Positions 13,301-18,730 of a stretch of DNA of 23,653 bases are shown piece by piece. The notes below the pieces were generated by a model, which saw only the letters and a program-made list of their open reading frames with translations, was not told where the DNA came from and made no database searches. Every line of letters begins with the position of its first letter. Position 1 is the first letter of the stretch. The translations under genes and the position numbers were made by a program. The DNA is from an archaeon (GTDB taxonomy: Archaea; Iainarchaeota; Iainarchaeia; Iainarchaeales; 1-14-0-10-31-34): NCBI GenBank assembly GCA_043815885.1, contig JBDRIL010000038.1:1-23653 (forward strand), written 5' to 3'.

Positions 13301-16300
13301 AGGGAGGGAGAAGCAGTAATTGAGATTCCTGCACAGGCTCCGGAAAGTGTATTGTATGCAGTAGTGGAGAAAGAGGAATTCAAGACATTAAAGCAAGAGA
13401 TAAGGATTGACGGAAACTTTGTGGAAGTAAAGCCAAAGAAGTTAGGGATTACGCTTAATACAGTTGAGAAAGCAACTTCAATGGATTCATTTACAATAGA
13501 GAACCTGCTTTACTTTGATTTAAAGCTTGAATCAATTGAAGTTCAGGGCGACCTAAAACATTTGATTGACGAGGATGCAATGAATGATTATCTCTATACT
13601 AATTTCAAGGGAATAACTGTTTCGGCAAAGGAAGAAAGAGAAATTCAATTGAGAAGCATTCTTTCAATGGAGGGAAGGAACTGGACGCAGAGAGAGGACT
13701 TGAAAGGAGAACTGCTGATGGTTTTCTCCAATGGAGAGGCTTCCTGGACATATAAATTGCCTTTAACCTACAGCATTGGAATAGGAAAGGAAGTTGATAA
13801 TCCAACCTGTTTCAGTGTTTCAATGAATGAATGGAAGACCTCCACAGAAGGAAGCACAGAGGAAGTGAGCTTTGAAATAGAGAATAACTGTACAGTGAAT
13901 GGCTCTCCCTTGGAATTAAAGGATTTGGAGGCAATGGTTGAATGGAAGAGCAATAAAGTGGGAGCATTTACTCTTACAGTGGAAGATGTTTCAGCTGAAT
14001 TAAGGTCTACTTACTACAAGAGTGTAAGGGACAATGTAGAGAATAAGAGACACAGGGCAATTCTTTCCTTTACTCCAAACGGAGGAGTGAATGGAACAGG
14101 AATTGCAACAATAAAGATTCGCGCAAGCAATGTACTGGAAGGAAAGAACCAGCTGCTGGAAGATGCAATTGAAACAGAAATAATGATAGTCAATTTACTG
14201 GACTGCATTAAGTTCTCCAAAGACGAATTAAGAATGCCTCAGGGAGGAAGTGATTCATTTAAAGTGGAGACGCTTGGATGCGGGGGAAACATAACCTTTT
14301 CCTTTGAATCAGATTTGCATTTAAGCACTAAAGAAATTGAATTAGGAGAAGAAGAGGAAAGCTCGGATATAATGGTTAGTGCAGTGGACGTGGTTCCAGG
14401 GCAATACAAGATTGTTGCAACAATGCAGGGAGAAGCATTAAAGACAAAGAGAAAAGTGAAAAACATTTATGCATTAGTTGAAGGAACAGGATGTGTAAGG
14501 CTGAGCAAATATGAATTCGATGTATACAATGATCCAGCTGATCCTTATGATGGATATGACACAGTGAAAATCATTAATGACTGCTACAAAAAAGAGTTCC
14601 CGGCAAAAGTGAAAATAAAGGACTGGAAGAAGGCAATGGAAGACGCATTAATGCCCACACTCTATGCCTTCCTTGGGGGAGGATTAATGAATGTAGTGGG
14701 AGACAAGATTCCAATTATCGGCCCATACCTTAACACAATCAAAGGACTCTTTGGAATCACAGGCGGGGAAGAGAAAAAACCTGAAACAAAAGAAAAAGAG
14801 AAAAGCAAATTGGAGAAACAAAAAGAAGACTTAGAAAAACAATTAGAGGAAGCGACTAAAGCAAAAAAAGACTCAGAAGAAATTAAAGAACTAGAAGAAA
14901 AAATATCAGAACTAAATAAAGAAATTAAAAAAATATTAGAAGATGAAAAAGAAGTAGTGACACCGCCCGAATCCCCTAAAACCCCAACAGAAGAACCCAA
15001 AAAGGAAGAATCTGAAACTCCTGCTCCTGCGCCCCCAGAAACTTCTGAAACTCCTAACCCTTCTGAAGGAACGCCTTCAAACGGAGAAATAGGGGACTTC
15101 CCAGCACCTTCAGAAGACGTATATGCTGAAGAAAAAGAAGGCATTCCAACAACTGGTTATTTCCTTGGAGGGATTCCAATTATAGGGGAATTCTTTACTA
15201 AGGGAAACATAATTACTACTGCATTGACTTTTGTTGGAACTACAATCTATAATTACATGAATCAGGATGACGTGCAATTGATGTATCTGGAGAGGGATTT
15301 AGGGGTAAAGGATTATGGATTGTTTGAGGAAAGGAAACAGTTAATTGAAGGGAAATTGATTGAAACTCCGGAGGAAAGGATTGGGTTTACGCCGAAAGTG
15401 GATGAAATTGATTTTGATGAAGATGTTTACACTGAATTCAAGGAAGGGACAACTGAATTAAGGGAAGTGTATGAAGTAGTATTCACTAATGAGGATGGAT
15501 GGAGGCAGAAGGATGCAATGAGTCCATTGTATGCATTATTCAATGTAGTAACGGAAAAGTATGAGTATGAGGAAGAATACAAGGACAAGATTCCTGAGAA
15601 ACTGGAGGAAATAACCCCAAGGGATGAAATGGAAAATGAATTCCATCTGCAATTTAATTCATTTAAGACGGACGAAAATATAGATAGCCGTCCATTAGGA
15701 AATTGTGTTATTGGTTCAAAGGTAGGAGAGACAGGGGAACAGGCAGAACTTCCAAAAGTGAAATTATTATGGAGATGGCAGGAATTTATGGGGGGAAAGG
15801 ATTCCAAAGGAAATGCAAATATTTATCCATGTAGTGAGGGAGGCTATTACTGTGATGCAACGCAATTCACTATAGAATTAATGGAGAGGATAAATGAAGC
15901 GCAAAAGATAATTGAGGACCTTGAATTAGAGTGCCCTTATCCAAGGGCTGAATGCAAGGAATTAAGCACTTCGTTAATAAATGAAATAATTAAGTATACT
16001 GAAGAAAAGAATGAAACTGAATTAAACAAGGAAGACAAGGAGAGGTTAACTAATTTACTTGGATTCAATGCTTACCTGATTAGGGACGGGTATTCTGCTG
16101 ACTTCCAGAAGGACTTCCATGACTATGCAGCAAATATTGCTTTCTTCCAGACTCCATTATTCTATCACAATCCTGATGATGTTAATAGTTCTCTTGGAGC
16201 AATATTCTCTAATCCAGACTTATTTGAATTCGATTACTTCAGGGAATCATCAAACCAGGCAATAAATGGCCCGGGAATGTACAGCATTACAATAGACATT

Positions 16301-17308
16301 ACTTATGATGATGATTCATTCCTGTTGTTTGAGAAGGAAAAGCTTACTGCAAGCATTAAGGCAAGCATGAGCAAACTGAAGGCACCAAAACCGGATTCGC
16401 CATTGTATTACATTCCGTTCGATGGAGAGATAGGCTTATTGAGTGATAACGGAAGAGTGGGATATGGAACGAATTACGAGACAACTCTTGGAGACCCAAT
16501 AAATGTTAATGACGCAATCGGAGGACAGGGGCAAATAAGAACAATAAATATTGCTAATGCAAACGCAATACACAATGTAAAGGCAACAACAAAGGATGAT
16601 TTAAAGACATTGAATGTGGATGAAAGAGGAACAGTAATGAAGTTTGAAAGGACTGGAACAGAAACACAGCTGCTGTATTCTCCTTCAGATGCAACTCCGG
16701 TTATTTTAGGAATAGATGATGCCACATCCAAAAATTTATTCCTGTTTTATTCAATCGAGATAGCGAATGAACCCCAGAGAAATGTCGGAAGTTATATGAG
16801 CAGATGGACTGGAAAAGGAGACAATTGTGTTGACTTCCACGGAAAGAAAATGATTGCATATGCAGAAGAACCAGACAGGCATGCACTGAGCTCTGAAGCG
16901 AAAAAGGAATCAGTAATGGATGACAGACTCAGACCATATTCATATGGATTTTATTGGAGTTCCCCTACAAGAGCAGGAGAGGTATTCTTTGAGACAGTGT
17001 TCTTTACTCCAAAGGAAAGGGATTCAATCTTAAGGATAACAGCAAAATCAGGAGGGACAGGCGTTAAATTTTATACTCCCACTACTTCCGGAGAACAGGT
17101 TACATTGAGCGGAGTAATGATTGAAAGCAGGAACAGGATTGATTCAGTGCAAAAGGTATTTGATTTGGTTAGAGAGGAAAAGATGTGCGTAATGGGAAAT
17201 GACAGCAGAAGCGTTGAATTCTTCTGGAATCCAAAAGTTGGATTGGATGAATTGGAAGATAGTTCAGCAGTAAAGGCACTGAAAATAGATGAAAGCTGTA
17301 TCAGGTAG
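10367..17308 (+). CDS. Giant membrane-anchored surface protein 2 (2313 aa), paralog of 2718..10349
   Basis: Starts 17 bp after the previous stop, with an SD-like GGAG. Same N-terminal motif + TM, same beta-sandwich repeats and shared motifs (RADKxVY, GIHFRxG, KWxNIxW, CDATQ, PFDGxxG, EFxWN). A central coiled coil and Pro/Glu-rich linker are flanked by Gly-rich hydrophobic segments. Confidence 0.88.
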   Translation: MGLKEVYYSLEEKYYNLLDKINKVIPLYKIVDPIDKIFPSFILCIIVVLILILVAGVMLAPGFMVKEEFDLAFKVTDEEGRGLGGSSITVEYEGTKKTLEADLFGKTDVVKVTEGTMVSFKAIKDGYESFEDSIEVKKNYTKEISLKELIIAFQETERNIEFYDSVNTSELVRERLYLYFSCENYEATPPDSIDVSDGRTIVSEPSECEGLSVTVKSSSYRQVNSFPLDYTINEIYLERLGSGEGEITIETYYNDAPIDNIWVGLYEDTELGPVYEGYTYGGEVSFAVVPQLYFIKAYDELNEFEPSSITASIEANEERTVRISLEKNVPEIASGLIRIQVVDSANSKRLIGGAKVTLRKEEEEIATLETSIDENAIIEFNVDDEEASYNAIIDHEDYLVKRETDLRVSDAVHTVKLERFDGENGGELKVRAIDQEGVPVRNARVALYDDKKNLIQAVEETTDLNGEAEFTRVQNGHYMAFAYKGTVSGWSDASYFNMRTGELTELVVVMQIPDGTLKIKVVDLDDEPIRFANISLFDASNEELVINTPTDSNGVLNYTERADKSVYFKVEKEGFASFHSIVYQLLPNTVEEIEVVMEKAIVSGEATVEFVGVYKEDEFVSGKEEGLPGALSSGEEYIALLYLRVPEKKNYSEAGIHFRLGKDLFMENDLMFIKEVMDGEATVKKYTRFSGNDAKDDLKSLSEEYGKWTNIVWRAPEAGIHEVRVLFKVKENVEKGKELAFNYRSWARKGNKAYRDPEDVAMEEELYAAVKKKIYTTGFTTLCSDEFCFTASILDKKEDLVEGVVDSYTAKIWQEYQLEFDIVNNSKDFIHYPDSYAKIRNNNEAITFTHYSIKNADSRPIVDEPDSSYIKKVDLGEFSPNRHVVGKIDFRIVKDAGGTINITIVSGKEMKFSRDITIEVEAPKEFALSFEPDPIAAGVSNKVLFKVKELVEEKEVEKALITLKDKFSDVIVGPVSTDREGEAVIEIPAQAPESVLYAVVEKEEFKTLKQEIRIDGNFVEVKPKKLGITLNTVEKATSMDSFTIENLLYFDLKLESIEVQGDLKHLIDEDAMNDYLYTNFKGITVSAKEEREIQLRSILSMEGRNWTQREDLKGELLMVFSNGEASWTYKLPLTYSIGIGKEVDNPTCFSVSMNEWKTSTEGSTEEVSFEIENNCTVNGSPLELKDLEAMVEWKSNKVGAFTLTVEDVSAELRSTYYKSVRDNVENKRHRAILSFTPNGGVNGTGIATIKIRASNVLEGKNQLLEDAIETEIMIVNLLDCIKFSKDELRMPQGGSDSFKVETLGCGGNITFSFESDLHLSTKEIELGEEEESSDIMVSAVDVVPGQYKIVATMQGEALKTKRKVKNIYALVEGTGCVRLSKYEFDVYNDPADPYDGYDTVKIINDCYKKEFPAKVKIKDWKKAMEDALMPTLYAFLGGGLMNVVGDKIPIIGPYLNTIKGLFGITGGEEKKPETKEKEKSKLEKQKEDLEKQLEEATKAKKDSEEIKELEEKISELNKEIKKILEDEKEVVTPPESPKTPTEEPKKEESETPAPAPPETSETPNPSEGTPSNGEIGDFPAPSEDVYAEEKEGIPTTGYFLGGIPIIGEFFTKGNIITTALTFVGTTIYNYMNQDDVQLMYLERDLGVKDYGLFEERKQLIEGKLIETPEERIGFTPKVDEIDFDEDVYTEFKEGTTELREVYEVVFTNEDGWRQKDAMSPLYALFNVVTEKYEYEEEYKDKIPEKLEEITPRDEMENEFHLQFNSFKTDENIDSRPLGNCVIGSKVGETGEQAELPKVKLLWRWQEFMGGKDSKGNANIYPCSEGGYYCDATQFTIELMERINEAQKIIEDLELECPYPRAECKELSTSLINEIIKYTEEKNETELNKEDKERLTNLLGFNAYLIRDGYSADFQKDFHDYAANIAFFQTPLFYHNPDDVNSSLGAIFSNPDLFEFDYFRESSNQAINGPGMYSITIDITYDDDSFLLFEKEKLTASIKASMSKLKAPKPDSPLYYIPFDGEIGLLSDNGRVGYGTNYETTLGDPINVNDAIGGQGQIRTINIANANAIHNVKATTKDDLKTLNVDERGTVMKFERTGTETQLLYSPSDATPVILGIDDATSKNLFLFYSIEIANEPQRNVGSYMSRWTGKGDNCVDFHGKKMIAYAEEPDRHALSSEAKKESVMDDRLRPYSYGFYWSSPTRAGEVFFETVFFTPKERDSILRITAKSGGTGVKFYTPTTSGEQVTLSGVMIESRNRIDSVQKVFDLVREEKMCVMGNDSRSVEFFWNPKVGLDELEDSSAVKALKIDESCIR

Positions 17309-17470
17309 AGAATATTATATGTGACATCCTCCCACGCCTAAAGGCGTAGGCTTCCGTGGTCGACAACTGAAACATTTTTAGGAAGCCTTTTTTTCACTGC
17401 CACGGTTAAGGGCATTGCCACATTGCCCGCTTCACCAAACATATAGCTTGATGAAAAAGTTTTTGCAAGA
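17301..17470 (-). ncRNA. Predicted TnpB omegaRNA (reRNA); guide begins 5'-AUAUAAUAUUCUCUACCUGA
   Basis: Inferred from the known TnpB architecture: the scaffold overlaps the tnpB 3' end and right end, and the guide is the flank beyond TCAC (17320 downward). The 5' boundary and guide length are approximate. Confidence 0.6.
17309..17320 (+). repeat. 12-bp direct repeat copy 1 (AGAATATTATAT)
   Basis: Exact match to 18670-18681. It fills the whole gap between the protein 2 stop codon and the IS right end. Confidence 0.9.
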
Positions 17471-18576
17471 TTTATTGCTGCATTCAAATCAGCATTCAAC
17501 TCATAACCACATTTTTTACACTTAAAAACTGAACCAACTCTATTGCTTTTACTTGTAAAACCACATTTATTGCAACGCTGAGAACTGAACTTTGGAGAAA
17601 CATAAACTACTGGAATACCATTCCAAGCAGCCTTGTATTCAATGAATAACTGCAACTGACTGAAAGTCCAAGAATGAAGCAAACCATTCAATTTCTTACT
17701 TGACTTCAATCGATTCCTAATATGCTTTAAGTCCTCCAAAACAATTACAGGATTCTTAACCTGCAATGCCTGTTTTACGATAACTGCACTTACTTTATGA
17801 TTCAAGTCCTGCATAAAACATTTCTCCTTATACTTGCTCTTTTTCACTCTCCAAAGCTTCTTGAAACGCATTAACTGTTTCCTGAATTCATTGAAATGGT
17901 TTCTAACAGCAATAGACTTCCTTCCAGAAAAAAACCTTACACTCAAAGGCTTGTCTTTCCAAATCACAGAAGTGGAAACATTATTCAAACCCAAATCAAC
18001 ACCAACAGGAACACTATTTGCATCCGGTTCTTTTATAGTCACCTCCCTTTTAACAACAACATAAAAGAAAAAATCATTACCACGCTTAACCAATTCAACA
18101 CAAGCCATTCCAAGCTCTTCATTCAACAATTTCCTCAAATACATATACTGATGCCTTTGTCCCAGCAAAGGAACAAACATTCTGCCAGAACAAGTGGAAA
18201 CAGAAGCAAAAAACTCGAGCTTGTTATCAGTTCTGATTATCTTAAAAGTTCTAGAATCCAACCTAACAGGAGCTCCACCAGAAAAAACAGGTACAGAAAC
18301 CTTCAACCCCTTCTTTTTCTTACTCAAATAAGACTTGAATGCCTCCAAAGCCTTATCCCTAGCTGACTGCAACAAAGCAGAAGGCAAAGAAGAAGACTTC
18401 CTCAATTCACTATAAGTCAATTCATGCAAAACAGTCTTAGAAACAACTTTTCTCTCAGCCATCACTCTAACATAATAATTCAACAACTTACCATTCTCAA
18501 TAAGCAAATCCAAAAAAGTTTCCTTAACCCTAGTTGGATTAAACACTTTAACCTTAACAGTTTTAAAAACTTGCAT
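17338..18576 (-). CDS. tnpB: RNA-guided endonuclease TnpB, 412 aa
   Basis: RuvC-I VGVDLG, RuvC-II IVLEDL, W-x-F-x-QL...IEYKA, SSQRCNKCG...FKCKKCG zinc ribbon, RuvC-III NADLNAAINL. The D-E-D triad is intact. The stop codon falls within the right-end hairpin. Confidence 0.95.
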   Translation of the reverse strand: MQVFKTVKVKVFNPTRVKETFLDLLIENGKLLNYYVRVMAERKVVSKTVLHELTYSELRKSSSLPSALLQSARDKALEAFKSYLSKKKKGLKVSVPVFSGGAPVRLDSRTFKIIRTDNKLEFFASVSTCSGRMFVPLLGQRHQYMYLRKLLNEELGMACVELVKRGNDFFFYVVVKREVTIKEPDANSVPVGVDLGLNNVSTSVIWKDKPLSVRFFSGRKSIAVRNHFNEFRKQLMRFKKLWRVKKSKYKEKCFMQDLNHKVSAVIVKQALQVKNPVIVLEDLKHIRNRLKSSKKLNGLLHSWTFSQLQLFIEYKAAWNGIPVVYVSPKFSSQRCNKCGFTSKSNRVGSVFKCKKCGYELNADLNAAINLAKTFSSSYMFGEAGNVAMPLTVAVKKRLPKNVSVVDHGSLRL

Positions 18577-18600
18577 ACAATAAAAAGAGTAATTAGAGGC

Positions 18601-18615
18601 TTATAAAGCATTTCG
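18601..18615 (-). promoter_or_regulatory. Archaeal BRE + TATA promoter of tnpB (leaderless)
   Basis: The minus strand reads CGAAA-TGC-TTTATAA, ending ~25 nt upstream of the tnpB ATG (18576), which is canonical archaeal spacing. Confidence 0.65.
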
Positions 18616-18669
18616 GGAGAGTAGATTTCCGATGAAATATCCAACAACCAAAGATGTTGGTTTTCTCAC

Positions 18670-18681
18670 AGAATATTATAT
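18670..18681 (+). repeat. 12-bp direct repeat copy 2 (AGAATATTATAT)
   Basis: Exact match to 17309-17320. It abuts the predicted TTAT target tetranucleotide. Confidence 0.9.
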
Positions 18682-18698
18682 ATAATTTTCTATATAAA
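18676..18698 (+). promoter_or_regulatory. Candidate TATA box(es) for giant protein 3
   Basis: TTATATATAA (18676-18685) and TATATAAA (18691-18698) lie 33-55 nt upstream of ATG 18731, followed by a purine-rich AAGGAAGGA SD-like tract. Which box is used cannot be determined from sequence. Confidence 0.4.
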
Positions 18699-18730
18699 GA
18701 ATCATACGAAGTGAAAGGAAGGAATAATTG

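Follow-up and report, generated by a model that had tools for sequence, protein, structure and literature searches.

A transposable element carrying only tnpB, located in a 23,653-nt contig of a DPANN (Iainarchaeum-like) archaeon (the whole contig is hereafter called the window), was found to be enclosed by two copies of a 12-nt sequence derived from its own target, one at each end. The IS200/IS605 family is the classic example of elements that transpose without duplicating their target, and the theory of TnpB homing assumes that the guide of the element-encoded omegaRNA matches only the empty site. It was observed here that the repeat is flank-specific, anchored to TTAT, flush with both conserved ends of the element and variable in length. 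We infer that the insertion of this IS200/IS605 element, of the IS1341 group, duplicated a variable stretch of the target through the activity of a Y1 TnpA combined with the extension of a target 3′ end, a reading to which a probability of roughly 0.45 is assigned.

The genome holding the window (G000; 1.16 Mb in 62 contigs, 92% complete, 36.8% G+C) contained a second copy of the element on another contig (C11, locus L002), 90% identical over window positions 17321-18638, and the alignment of both copies provided the bounds of the element. Conservation began exactly at 17321 (gtgacatcc...) and stopped at ...ggttttctcac (18669), which delimited a conserved tnpB-only element of 1,349 bp on the minus strand (17321-18669). 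The sequence AGAATATTATAT (plus strand) occurred twice in the window, at 17309-17320 and 18670-18681, as the original prediction had reported, and, because the bounds of conservation were 17321 and 18669, both 12-mers directly adjoin the conserved element ends. In the orientation of the element, the left junction reads TTAT-ATATAATATTCT-GTGAG and the right junction reads ...GGATGTCAC-ATATAATATTCT-CTACC, with the tail ending in GTCAC. The insertion took place 3′ of TTAT, in a spacer of ~60 nt between two giant genes, and the right repeat copy starts one base past the TAG stop codon (17306-17308) of the upstream giant gene.

A protein search across 196 genomes of the order recovered six more loci at 51-60% identity, and the family considered here is therefore composed of eight loci, namely the window, C11, G067, G068, G166, G167, G168 and G177. 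No further members were found in 215 genomes of the phylum, in genome contigs or in viral contigs, and the metagenome contigs searched returned just a duplicate of the G177 locus and one partial locus. The C11 junctions were TTAT-TAATTAGC-C-GTGAA... on the left and ...GTCAC-TAATTAGC-TTCC on the right, corresponding to a repeat of 8 nt (8 or 9), while the G177 locus, from another genus and 51% identical, presented TTAT-AAACGTAT-GCTGG... and ...GTCAC-AAACGTAT-CCCC, a repeat of 8 nt. Repeat length thus varied among the window (12 nt), C11 (8 or 9 nt) and G177 (8 nt). The two copies in G000 share the GTGA start of the left end and their repeats are unrelated. Since the repeat differs in each copy and matches that copy's own flank, it is a target-derived duplication and not a constant encoded by the element. 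The original prediction had proposed this very comparison of a constant against a varying 12-mer, and the sequences found (ATATAATATTCT in the window, TAATTAGC in C11, AAACGTAT in G177) settled it in favor of a true duplication.

The TTAT tetranucleotide was recognized by eye upstream of the left end in seven of the eight loci, and it directly preceded the repeat in all three repeat-bearing ones. The association was evaluated by an anchored test, in which the 300 nt upstream of tnpB were searched for TTAT and the longest prefix of the locus's own right flank immediately following one of them was recorded. The prefix lengths obtained for the eight family loci were 12, 8, 8, 4, 0, 0, 0 and 0 nt, and the maximum in the controls was 6 nt, both in 56 mispaired flank/upstream pairs and in 640 decoy 20-mers taken from the same loci. 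A prefix of at least 8 nt was accordingly reached by 3/8 family loci against 0/56 mispaired pairs and 0/640 decoys. The value of 4 belonged to G168, in which TTAT stands immediately before GTGA and the flank too begins with GTGA, a match of 4 nt only that was excluded from the repeat count. Two other candidates were left uncounted: an 8-nt match in G166, which sits in the tnpB TATA box and not after TTAT, and the G167 locus, whose gapped local alignment score of 11, in a search for decayed repeats, equalled the control maximum of 11.

The state of the target without the element could be approached for the C11 insertion. The gene on the left-end side of this copy was conserved in all nine genomes of the family, and the flanking genes were directly adjacent in G004 and G006. 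G006 has ...TAAaaCTAATTAAATAAc... where G000, after subtraction of the element and one repeat, would read gcTAATTA|ATAAat, and it carries CTAATTAAATAA once where G000 has GCTAATTA|ATAA; from this sequence, the repeated word is single in the uninterrupted C11 site. At the window site, the two giant genes formed a syntenic pair and were adjacent without tnpB in five of the six relatives inspected, in which the next gene starts ~30-110 nt after the upstream giant gene; the spacers of these relatives were too diverged for the 12-mer to be aligned. In a marine sediment sequencing run (X4), a contig with a ~91% relative of the giant gene covered positions 16300-17301 and continued with 838 nt unlike the window, and an element copy of ~90% identity (17314-18630) was present on a different contig. 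These contigs indicate that the element lies elsewhere in that organism and are compatible with an empty window site, no more. An empty site was also sought for G177, which proved to be the sole genome of its GTDB family.

The class of the element was deduced from its ends and its coding capacity. A left subterminal hairpin was clear in four of the seven loci folded (window, C11, G168 and G177) and not clear in G067, G068 and G167, and TTAT was located 21, 17, 17 and 18 nt upstream of it in the four loci with a clear hairpin. At the right end, GAAG stands on the 5′ side of a covarying hairpin, and the last four of the 10 nt beyond this hairpin are TCAC. In IS608, 19 nt separate the left hairpin from the left cleavage site TTAC on its 5′ side, and 10 nt separate the right hairpin from the right site TCAA on its 3′ side; the guide tetranucleotides located 5′ of the hairpins, by which the sites are read, are AAAG on the left and GAAT on the right (PMC3201880, PMC5934647). 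Compared by eye, the site/guide pairs of the window element, TTAT/AAAA and TCAC/GAAG, were the same as the IS608 pairs TTAC/AAAG and TCAA/GAAT at positions 1-3, and the fourth position was changed in a complementary manner at both ends. The GTGA of the left end is complementary to the TCAC of the right end, and this inverted terminal identity extends over merely 4-5 nt, with no long terminal inverted repeats.

No Y1 TnpA (PF01797) was found in G000, and the same was observed for the serine recombinase PF00239 and for the transposase families DDE_Tnp_1, IS1595, DDE_3 and rve (PF01609, PF12762, PF13358, PF00665); Cas1 and other transposase families were not searched. A Y1 TnpA was present in 55/196 genomes of the order, including G067, G068, G167 and G177, i.e., in four of the seven genomes bearing the family. 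Moreover, TnpB relatives at ~35% identity adjoin TnpA, and an autonomous IS605 element in G159 showed a similar right end and no repeat. Considering the predicted TnpB and omegaRNA, the subterminal hairpins and the TTAT site with its guide pairing (the latter by sequence inspection), the element is interpreted as a non-autonomous member of the IS200/IS605 family, of the tnpB-only (IS1341) kind, that has been left stranded. What does not fit this class in the sequences examined is the rule of no duplication, with repeats in 3/8 loci, and the availability of TnpA in G000; the duplication is the sole defining departure from the family. Membership in the IS607 group was rejected, considering that PF00239 was not found in G000, that the ends are GTGAG/GTCAC and that repeats of 8-12 nt do not match a 2-nt core. 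A passenger mobilized by DDE or Cas1 enzymes would be expected to end in inverted repeats of at least ~10 nt and to be flanked by a duplication whose length is constant, and the family presents instead an inverted identity of 4-5 nt and lengths of 12, 8/9 and 8 nt, with none in 5/8 loci. A nuclease-dead TnpB-like repressor was likewise dismissed, given that the RuvC triad is intact and that two copies occupy different sites of G000.

The route proposed for the duplication would begin with a Y1 TnpA provided in trans, now absent from G000, cleaving the target at TTAT|. The right end would be joined canonically to the base after TTAT (TCAC|first target base), and a polymerase would lengthen the 3′-OH at TTAT by 8-12 nt along the complementary strand, so that the extended 3′ end could then resolve the left-end intermediate and the flank prefix would remain on both sides. 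The second copy of the prefix must be synthesized, because a single strand cannot give both the TTAT-prefix-3′-OH and the 5′-prefix followed by the rest of the target. An equivalent result would be reached by a nick placed 8-12 nt downstream, followed by second-strand completion or fill-in, with the displaced flap retained. Such extension would explain why only the prefix of the right flank is repeated, its start at TTAT, the flush ends, the variable length and the existence of copies without a repeat. A more ambitious proposal was also contemplated, in which some archaeal IS200/IS605-type TnpB elements would use a new integration step, with the right end joined at TAM|target (TAM, transposon-associated motif) and the left end 8-12 nt further on, to a polymerase-extended or second copy of the target strand, so that all insertions of this type would have a TAM-anchored duplication from the start; the left-end linker would in this way be brought to the ~19 nt that TnpA needs, and non-cleavable docking of TnpB would couple the nuclease to excision or promoter control. 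This combination is considered unlikely.

However, several observations weigh against an extension during TnpA-mediated insertion. The repeat was present in only 3/8 family loci and is therefore not obligatory for the element, and the spacers of G067 (TTAT-TTT-GTGAG) and G068 (TTAT-AACTTT-GTGAG) were unrelated to their flanks. The C11 junction contains one extra or mismatched base. The model was fitted to three junctions, and its joining steps are ones that we infer; a stop of the extension at a TTAT-like 3′ end would fit the window (TTCT) and G177 (GTAT), but not C11 (AGCC). There is also a tension in the left end itself, as the IS608-like spacing between TTAT and the hairpin requires counting the repeat as part of the left end, implying that TnpA carries it along, and the two G000 copies do not share it. 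The failure to find a Y1 TnpA counts in the same direction, although the genome is just 92% complete, as does the lack of any contig bridging the site without the insertion in four sequencing runs, out of six on record, all of them without an RNA designation. Furthermore, the absence of target duplication in the family is asserted both in reviews and in primary papers (PMC7290912, PMC13565253, PMC4810608).

As a result of the duplication, the filled locus holds TTAT followed by a perfect match to the element's own guide, of 12 nt in the window and 8 nt in C11 and G177. The junction sequences and the anchored test bore out the layout that had been predicted from the window alone, with TTAT as target and TAM, the guide corresponding to the right flank and the left junction of the element itself bearing a 12-nt seed. 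ISDra2 TnpB was reported to cut the non-target strand 15 nt and the target strand 20-21 nt away from the TAM (PMC8612924), and the first ~12 bp are described as its specificity-determining seed (review, PMC13639567). For ISDge10 TnpB, whose TAM is also TTAT, binding in a reporter assay was reported to rise with guides below 14 nt and to peak at 10 nt, and indels to drop from 14 nt downwards, with none at 10 nt (PMC13507860). On the basis of these guide-length data for ISDge10 and ISDra2, the 8-12-nt repeats fall in the range of binding without cutting. By analogy, the self-match would be long enough for predicted binding and too short for efficient cutting, and a repressing self-binding, one of the explanations put forward in the original prediction, is compatible with the data published for a TnpB with TTAT as TAM. 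Duplications of at least 14 nt would probably be self-destructive, and no repeat of this length was seen, possibly because such copies are cleaved by their own nuclease and lost. The self-match may be a tolerated by-product, possibly co-opted, and interference with the promoter of the downstream giant gene is conceivable, as predicted from the 5-nt distance to its TATA-like box.

Other origins were weighed against an insertion by TnpA with extension. The nuclease itself could have left a scar by cutting the empty site, with repair from the filled copy retaining a TAM-proximal stub of the target before the left end. Cut-and-repair homing is the documented role of TnpB, and the retained piece is always a TAM-proximal prefix of the guide, shorter than the ~15 nt at which ISDra2 TnpB cuts the non-target strand. 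However, the routes of homologous repair and end joining that were worked through give a precise junction or a right junction located beyond the cut, and none of them yields the right end joined to position 1 together with the prefix joined to the left end. Moreover, random trimming would not place the junction with the left end at one and the same conserved base (GTGA) in independent copies, as is observed, and junction microhomology is inconsistent (TTCT, GTAT, AGCC); this origin is regarded as improbable. Slightly longer odds are given to the element having moved as the passenger of an enzyme encoded elsewhere, a double-strand cut-and-paste transposase (DDE or Cas1-like), in which case the repeat would be an ordinary target-site duplication and TTAT a preference of the enzyme. 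Indeed, no gap separates the repeats from either conserved end, the termini show weak inversion (GTGAG/GTCAC), DDE-linked and Asgard Cas1-linked TnpB have been described (PMC10691335), and in a second TnpB family, designated family C and presented below, a terminal inverted repeat of 13 nt is combined with a constant repeat of 8 bp. Nevertheless, the inverted identity of the present family is of 4-5 nt, the repeat measures 12, 8/9 or 8 nt and is absent in 5/8 loci, the ends are asymmetric and IS608-like with covarying guide and cleavage tetranucleotides, TTAT precedes the repeat in 3/3 cases, and G000 gave no match to the four DDE families searched, with other transposase families not searched.

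A scheme relying on canonical TnpA chemistry alone would be a read-through, in which excision cut beyond the right end and a circle junction carrying the flank prefix re-entered an empty copy of the same site. The exact structure observed would be generated in this way, the unmatched spacers of G067 and G068 could be memories of older sites, and the 'fuzzy' right ends of Replitron-1 carry downstream donor sequence in addition to duplications (PMC10288648). It is nonetheless held to be very improbable, since the 3′ ends of the repeats are unlike the right cleavage site TCAC and re-entry to the same site among thousands of TTATs would be demanded three separate times. Selection of the self-match was considered as well: the predicted docking of the TnpB-omegaRNA complex on its own left junction, without cutting, would regulate tnpB, the neighboring promoter or the access of TnpA. 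Repeats of 8-12 nt are within the published binding-not-cutting range for a TnpB with TTAT as TAM, in the window only 5 nt separate the site from the TATA-like box that belongs to the downstream giant gene, both G000 copies face the start of a host gene within ~50 nt, and nuclease-dead TnpB relatives acting as regulators are mentioned in PMC10691335. On the other hand, selection leaves the origin of the copy unexplained, 5/8 loci have no repeat, the site precedes the tnpB TATA box by ~75 nt, which is unfavorable for a roadblock, and lengths of up to 12 nt would be equally expected if longer ones were merely lethal; it is rated no higher than a scar of homing. Finally, a chance match in AT-rich DNA, which the original prediction had listed, would be favored by the 36.8% G+C of the genome and by AT-rich flanks, but the anchored test (3/8 loci versus 0/56 and 0/640) and repeats flush with both ends in three loci of two genera leave it practically no weight. 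The interpretation from which this work started had also suggested a duplication arising from repair or non-canonical integration, or a homology-assisted choice of the target: its anatomy and the duplication route stood, the latter through the flank-specific repeats, whereas chance and homology-assisted choice did not, the repeat being a target-derived duplication.

The features of the element and its junctions are given in Table 1.

Table 1. Features of the tnpB-only element and its flanks in the window.
Feature	Position	Strand	Basis
Right-flank repeat copy, first 12 nt of the omegaRNA guide/target (ATATAATATTCT in element orientation)	17309..17320	-	
Right-end tail AGGATGTCAC; last 4 bases TCAC, predicted right cleavage site C_R	17321..17330	-	
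Right subterminal hairpin CCTACGCC-TTTA-GGCGTGGG, also last omegaRNA stem; compensatory changes between copies	17331..17350	-	
GAAG adjoining the foot of the right hairpin on its 5′ side, where IS608 has its guide tetranucleotide G_R	17351..17354	-	by eye
omegaRNA region overlapping the tnpB 3′ end	17308..17430	-	
tnpB, 412 aa	17338..18576	-	open reading frame and Pfam match
Promoter of tnpB like a TFB recognition element (BRE) and TATA box (CCCGAAA..TTTATAA), ~25 nt upstream of ATG	18601..18617	-	
Left subterminal hairpin (CCAACA...TGTTGG)	18641..18660	-	
AAAA adjoining the foot of the left hairpin on its 5′ side, where IS608 has its guide tetranucleotide G_L	18661..18664	-	by eye
GTGAG, first conserved left-end bases, common to C11, G067 and G068	18665..18669	-	
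Left repeat copy, between TTAT and the conserved left end; predicted TAM plus 12-nt seed for the element's own guide	18670..18681	-	
TTAT (plus strand ATAA), predicted TnpA target/left cleavage site and TnpB TAM; 21 nt from the left hairpin foot	18682..18685	-	
TATA-like box CTATATAAAG of the downstream giant gene (ATG 18732), 5 nt from TTAT	18690..18699	+	by eye

The protein encoded by tnpB matched the Pfam family Cas12f1-like_TNB (PF07282; E 1.3e-24), and its nearest solved structures were Cas12f/TnpB proteins, with E 3e-24 for the best match and 6e-9 for ISDra2 TnpB. In an alignment of seven proteins, the RuvC residues D194, E281 and D363 were invariant, confirming the intact triad of the original prediction, as were the zinc-finger cysteines C335, C338, C353 and C356, with the CxxC...CxxC arrangement intact. 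The tnpB of G068 was interrupted by two stops. A third, partial tnpB was located at the very start of contig C2 of G000 (C2:375-572), comprising the zinc-ribbon domain (58 bits), and its left end lies outside the assembly.

A structured omegaRNA is predicted to overlap the tnpB 3′ end and to stop at the right end of the element. Its consensus fold presented compensatory changes in 12 of the 24 predicted pairs across the eight loci, and the region 17308-17430 (minus strand) gave a full-length match to the Rfam family HgcC (RF00062), which was sub-threshold (27.4 bits against a gathering score of 50; E 6e-4). TnpB guide RNAs like that of the window element may thus include the HgcC RNAs of methanogens. 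At the same right end, it was noted that both G000 copies meet or overlap the stop codon of a convergent host gene (window 17306-17320; L002 1485-1500), so the guide covers the last codons of that gene. The host genes surrounding the window copy belong to a tandem of three giant open reading frames (2546 aa, 2313 aa and >1642 aa; window 2709-23653), and 2000-2500-aa paralogues of them were numerous in every genome of the family.

At the left end, the C11 copy contained ~45 extra nt between the promoter motif and the hairpin (L002 ~2795-2860), and this extra sequence, together with the start GTGAAAAACC, formed a longer stem in the predicted fold. The promoter motif GGAAATCTACTCTCCCGAAA (window 18611-18630, minus strand) lies just upstream of the tnpB TATA box and adjoins the BRE/TATA-like promoter. 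The same motif recurred before the BRE/TATA-like boxes of unrelated host genes of G000, at C31:24319-24338 and C32 near 1659-1684 (20/20 and 23/26 nt). From its sequence, the promoter of the element looks like a host promoter type with a common upstream motif.

Scans of a broader set of TnpB loci were also performed. An unanchored scan for direct repeats in 53 loci was discarded as too noisy, with repeats of at least 10 nt in 19/53 loci versus 28/265 mispaired and 9/53 reverse-complement controls. When the scan was anchored to element ends defined by BLAST, the result was 7/55 cognate loci versus 43/550 mispaired in a first version and 2/79 versus 21/6162 in a second (79 loci, K=8); L121 was the only clean extra case, and the sensitivity of these anchored scans was low because BLAST defines left ends poorly. 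L121 belongs to family C (L118, L121, L134, L129, L132 and L049), an unrelated TnpB family from metagenome-assembled genomes of Methanobacteriota and Thermoplasmata with a 13-nt terminal inverted repeat. Its constant 8-bp flank repeat stands right after TTT and was exact in L121, 5/8 in L118 and absent in L049. Family C is probably a cut-and-paste passenger of the DDE/Cas1-linked kind. L134 and L129 both have CGACGTAG, but the identity of their overlap is only 94.9%, which indicates that they are probably not one copy. In G007 (L004, L006 and L007), three sequences resembling the right end (...CCACGGCTTTAGCCGTGGGAGGATGTCA) were observed without tnpB, after arrays of short palindromic AT-rich repeats; these could represent orphan ends, or else palindrome-associated elements that use the same TnpA.

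The window element shares with IS608 and ISDra2 the insertion 3′ of a tetranucleotide that doubles as TAM, the subterminal hairpins with guide tetranucleotides 5′ of each, a left site at ~19 nt and a right site at ~10 nt from the hairpin, and a tnpB with a 3′ omegaRNA whose guide corresponds to the right flank. It differs from them in the lack of tnpA, both in the element and in G000, and in having the first 8-12 nt of the target on both sides. The archaeal tnpB-only elements of the IS1341 group (sotRNA; the HgcC RNA of Methanocaldococcus) are similar in combining a solo tnpB with a structured RNA at the 3′ end. A survey of haloarchaeal elements described the terminal stretch before the palindrome as highly variable, left it unexplained and stated that target duplications do not occur (PMC3119063), whereas the terminal stretch that varies in the present family duplicates the right flank. 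The DDE- and Asgard Cas1-linked TnpB described by Altae-Tran et al. (2023) are also tnpB-only passengers and have symmetrical ends (PMC10691335), unlike the asymmetric, IS608-like ends of the window family, in which the repeat is of variable length and often absent. Regarding ISDge10 TnpB with short guides, for which TAM plus ~10 nt results in binding without cutting, the filled locus would present that same state to its own ribonucleoprotein. In that system and in the dead TnpB-like repressors, engineered guides or dead proteins act at host promoters, whereas the window element encodes an intact nuclease whose partial target lies at the end of the element itself. Replitron-1, a eukaryotic HUH/Rep transposon, resembles the present case in that its new insertions show duplications and carried-over downstream sequence; its enzyme is of the Rep class, it comes from another domain of life and it has no TnpB. 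A full-text literature search on TnpB, IS605 and IS1341 found no description of a TAM-anchored flank duplication.

In two copies within one genome and in one relative from another genus, the filled site carries the TAM and a seed-length match of target DNA to the element's own guide. In practical terms, a rule placing the TAM immediately against the conserved left end would assign incorrect TAMs and element boundaries to repeat-bearing copies. If the duplication is made at insertion, it would point to an unknown step in single-strand transposition or in its completion, which may bear on the mobility of tnpB-only elements in genomes lacking tnpA. Binding at the site, if it occurs, would represent a natural case of an active RNA-guided nuclease using a truncated match for control and not for cutting, a principle on which TnpB engineers are just starting.

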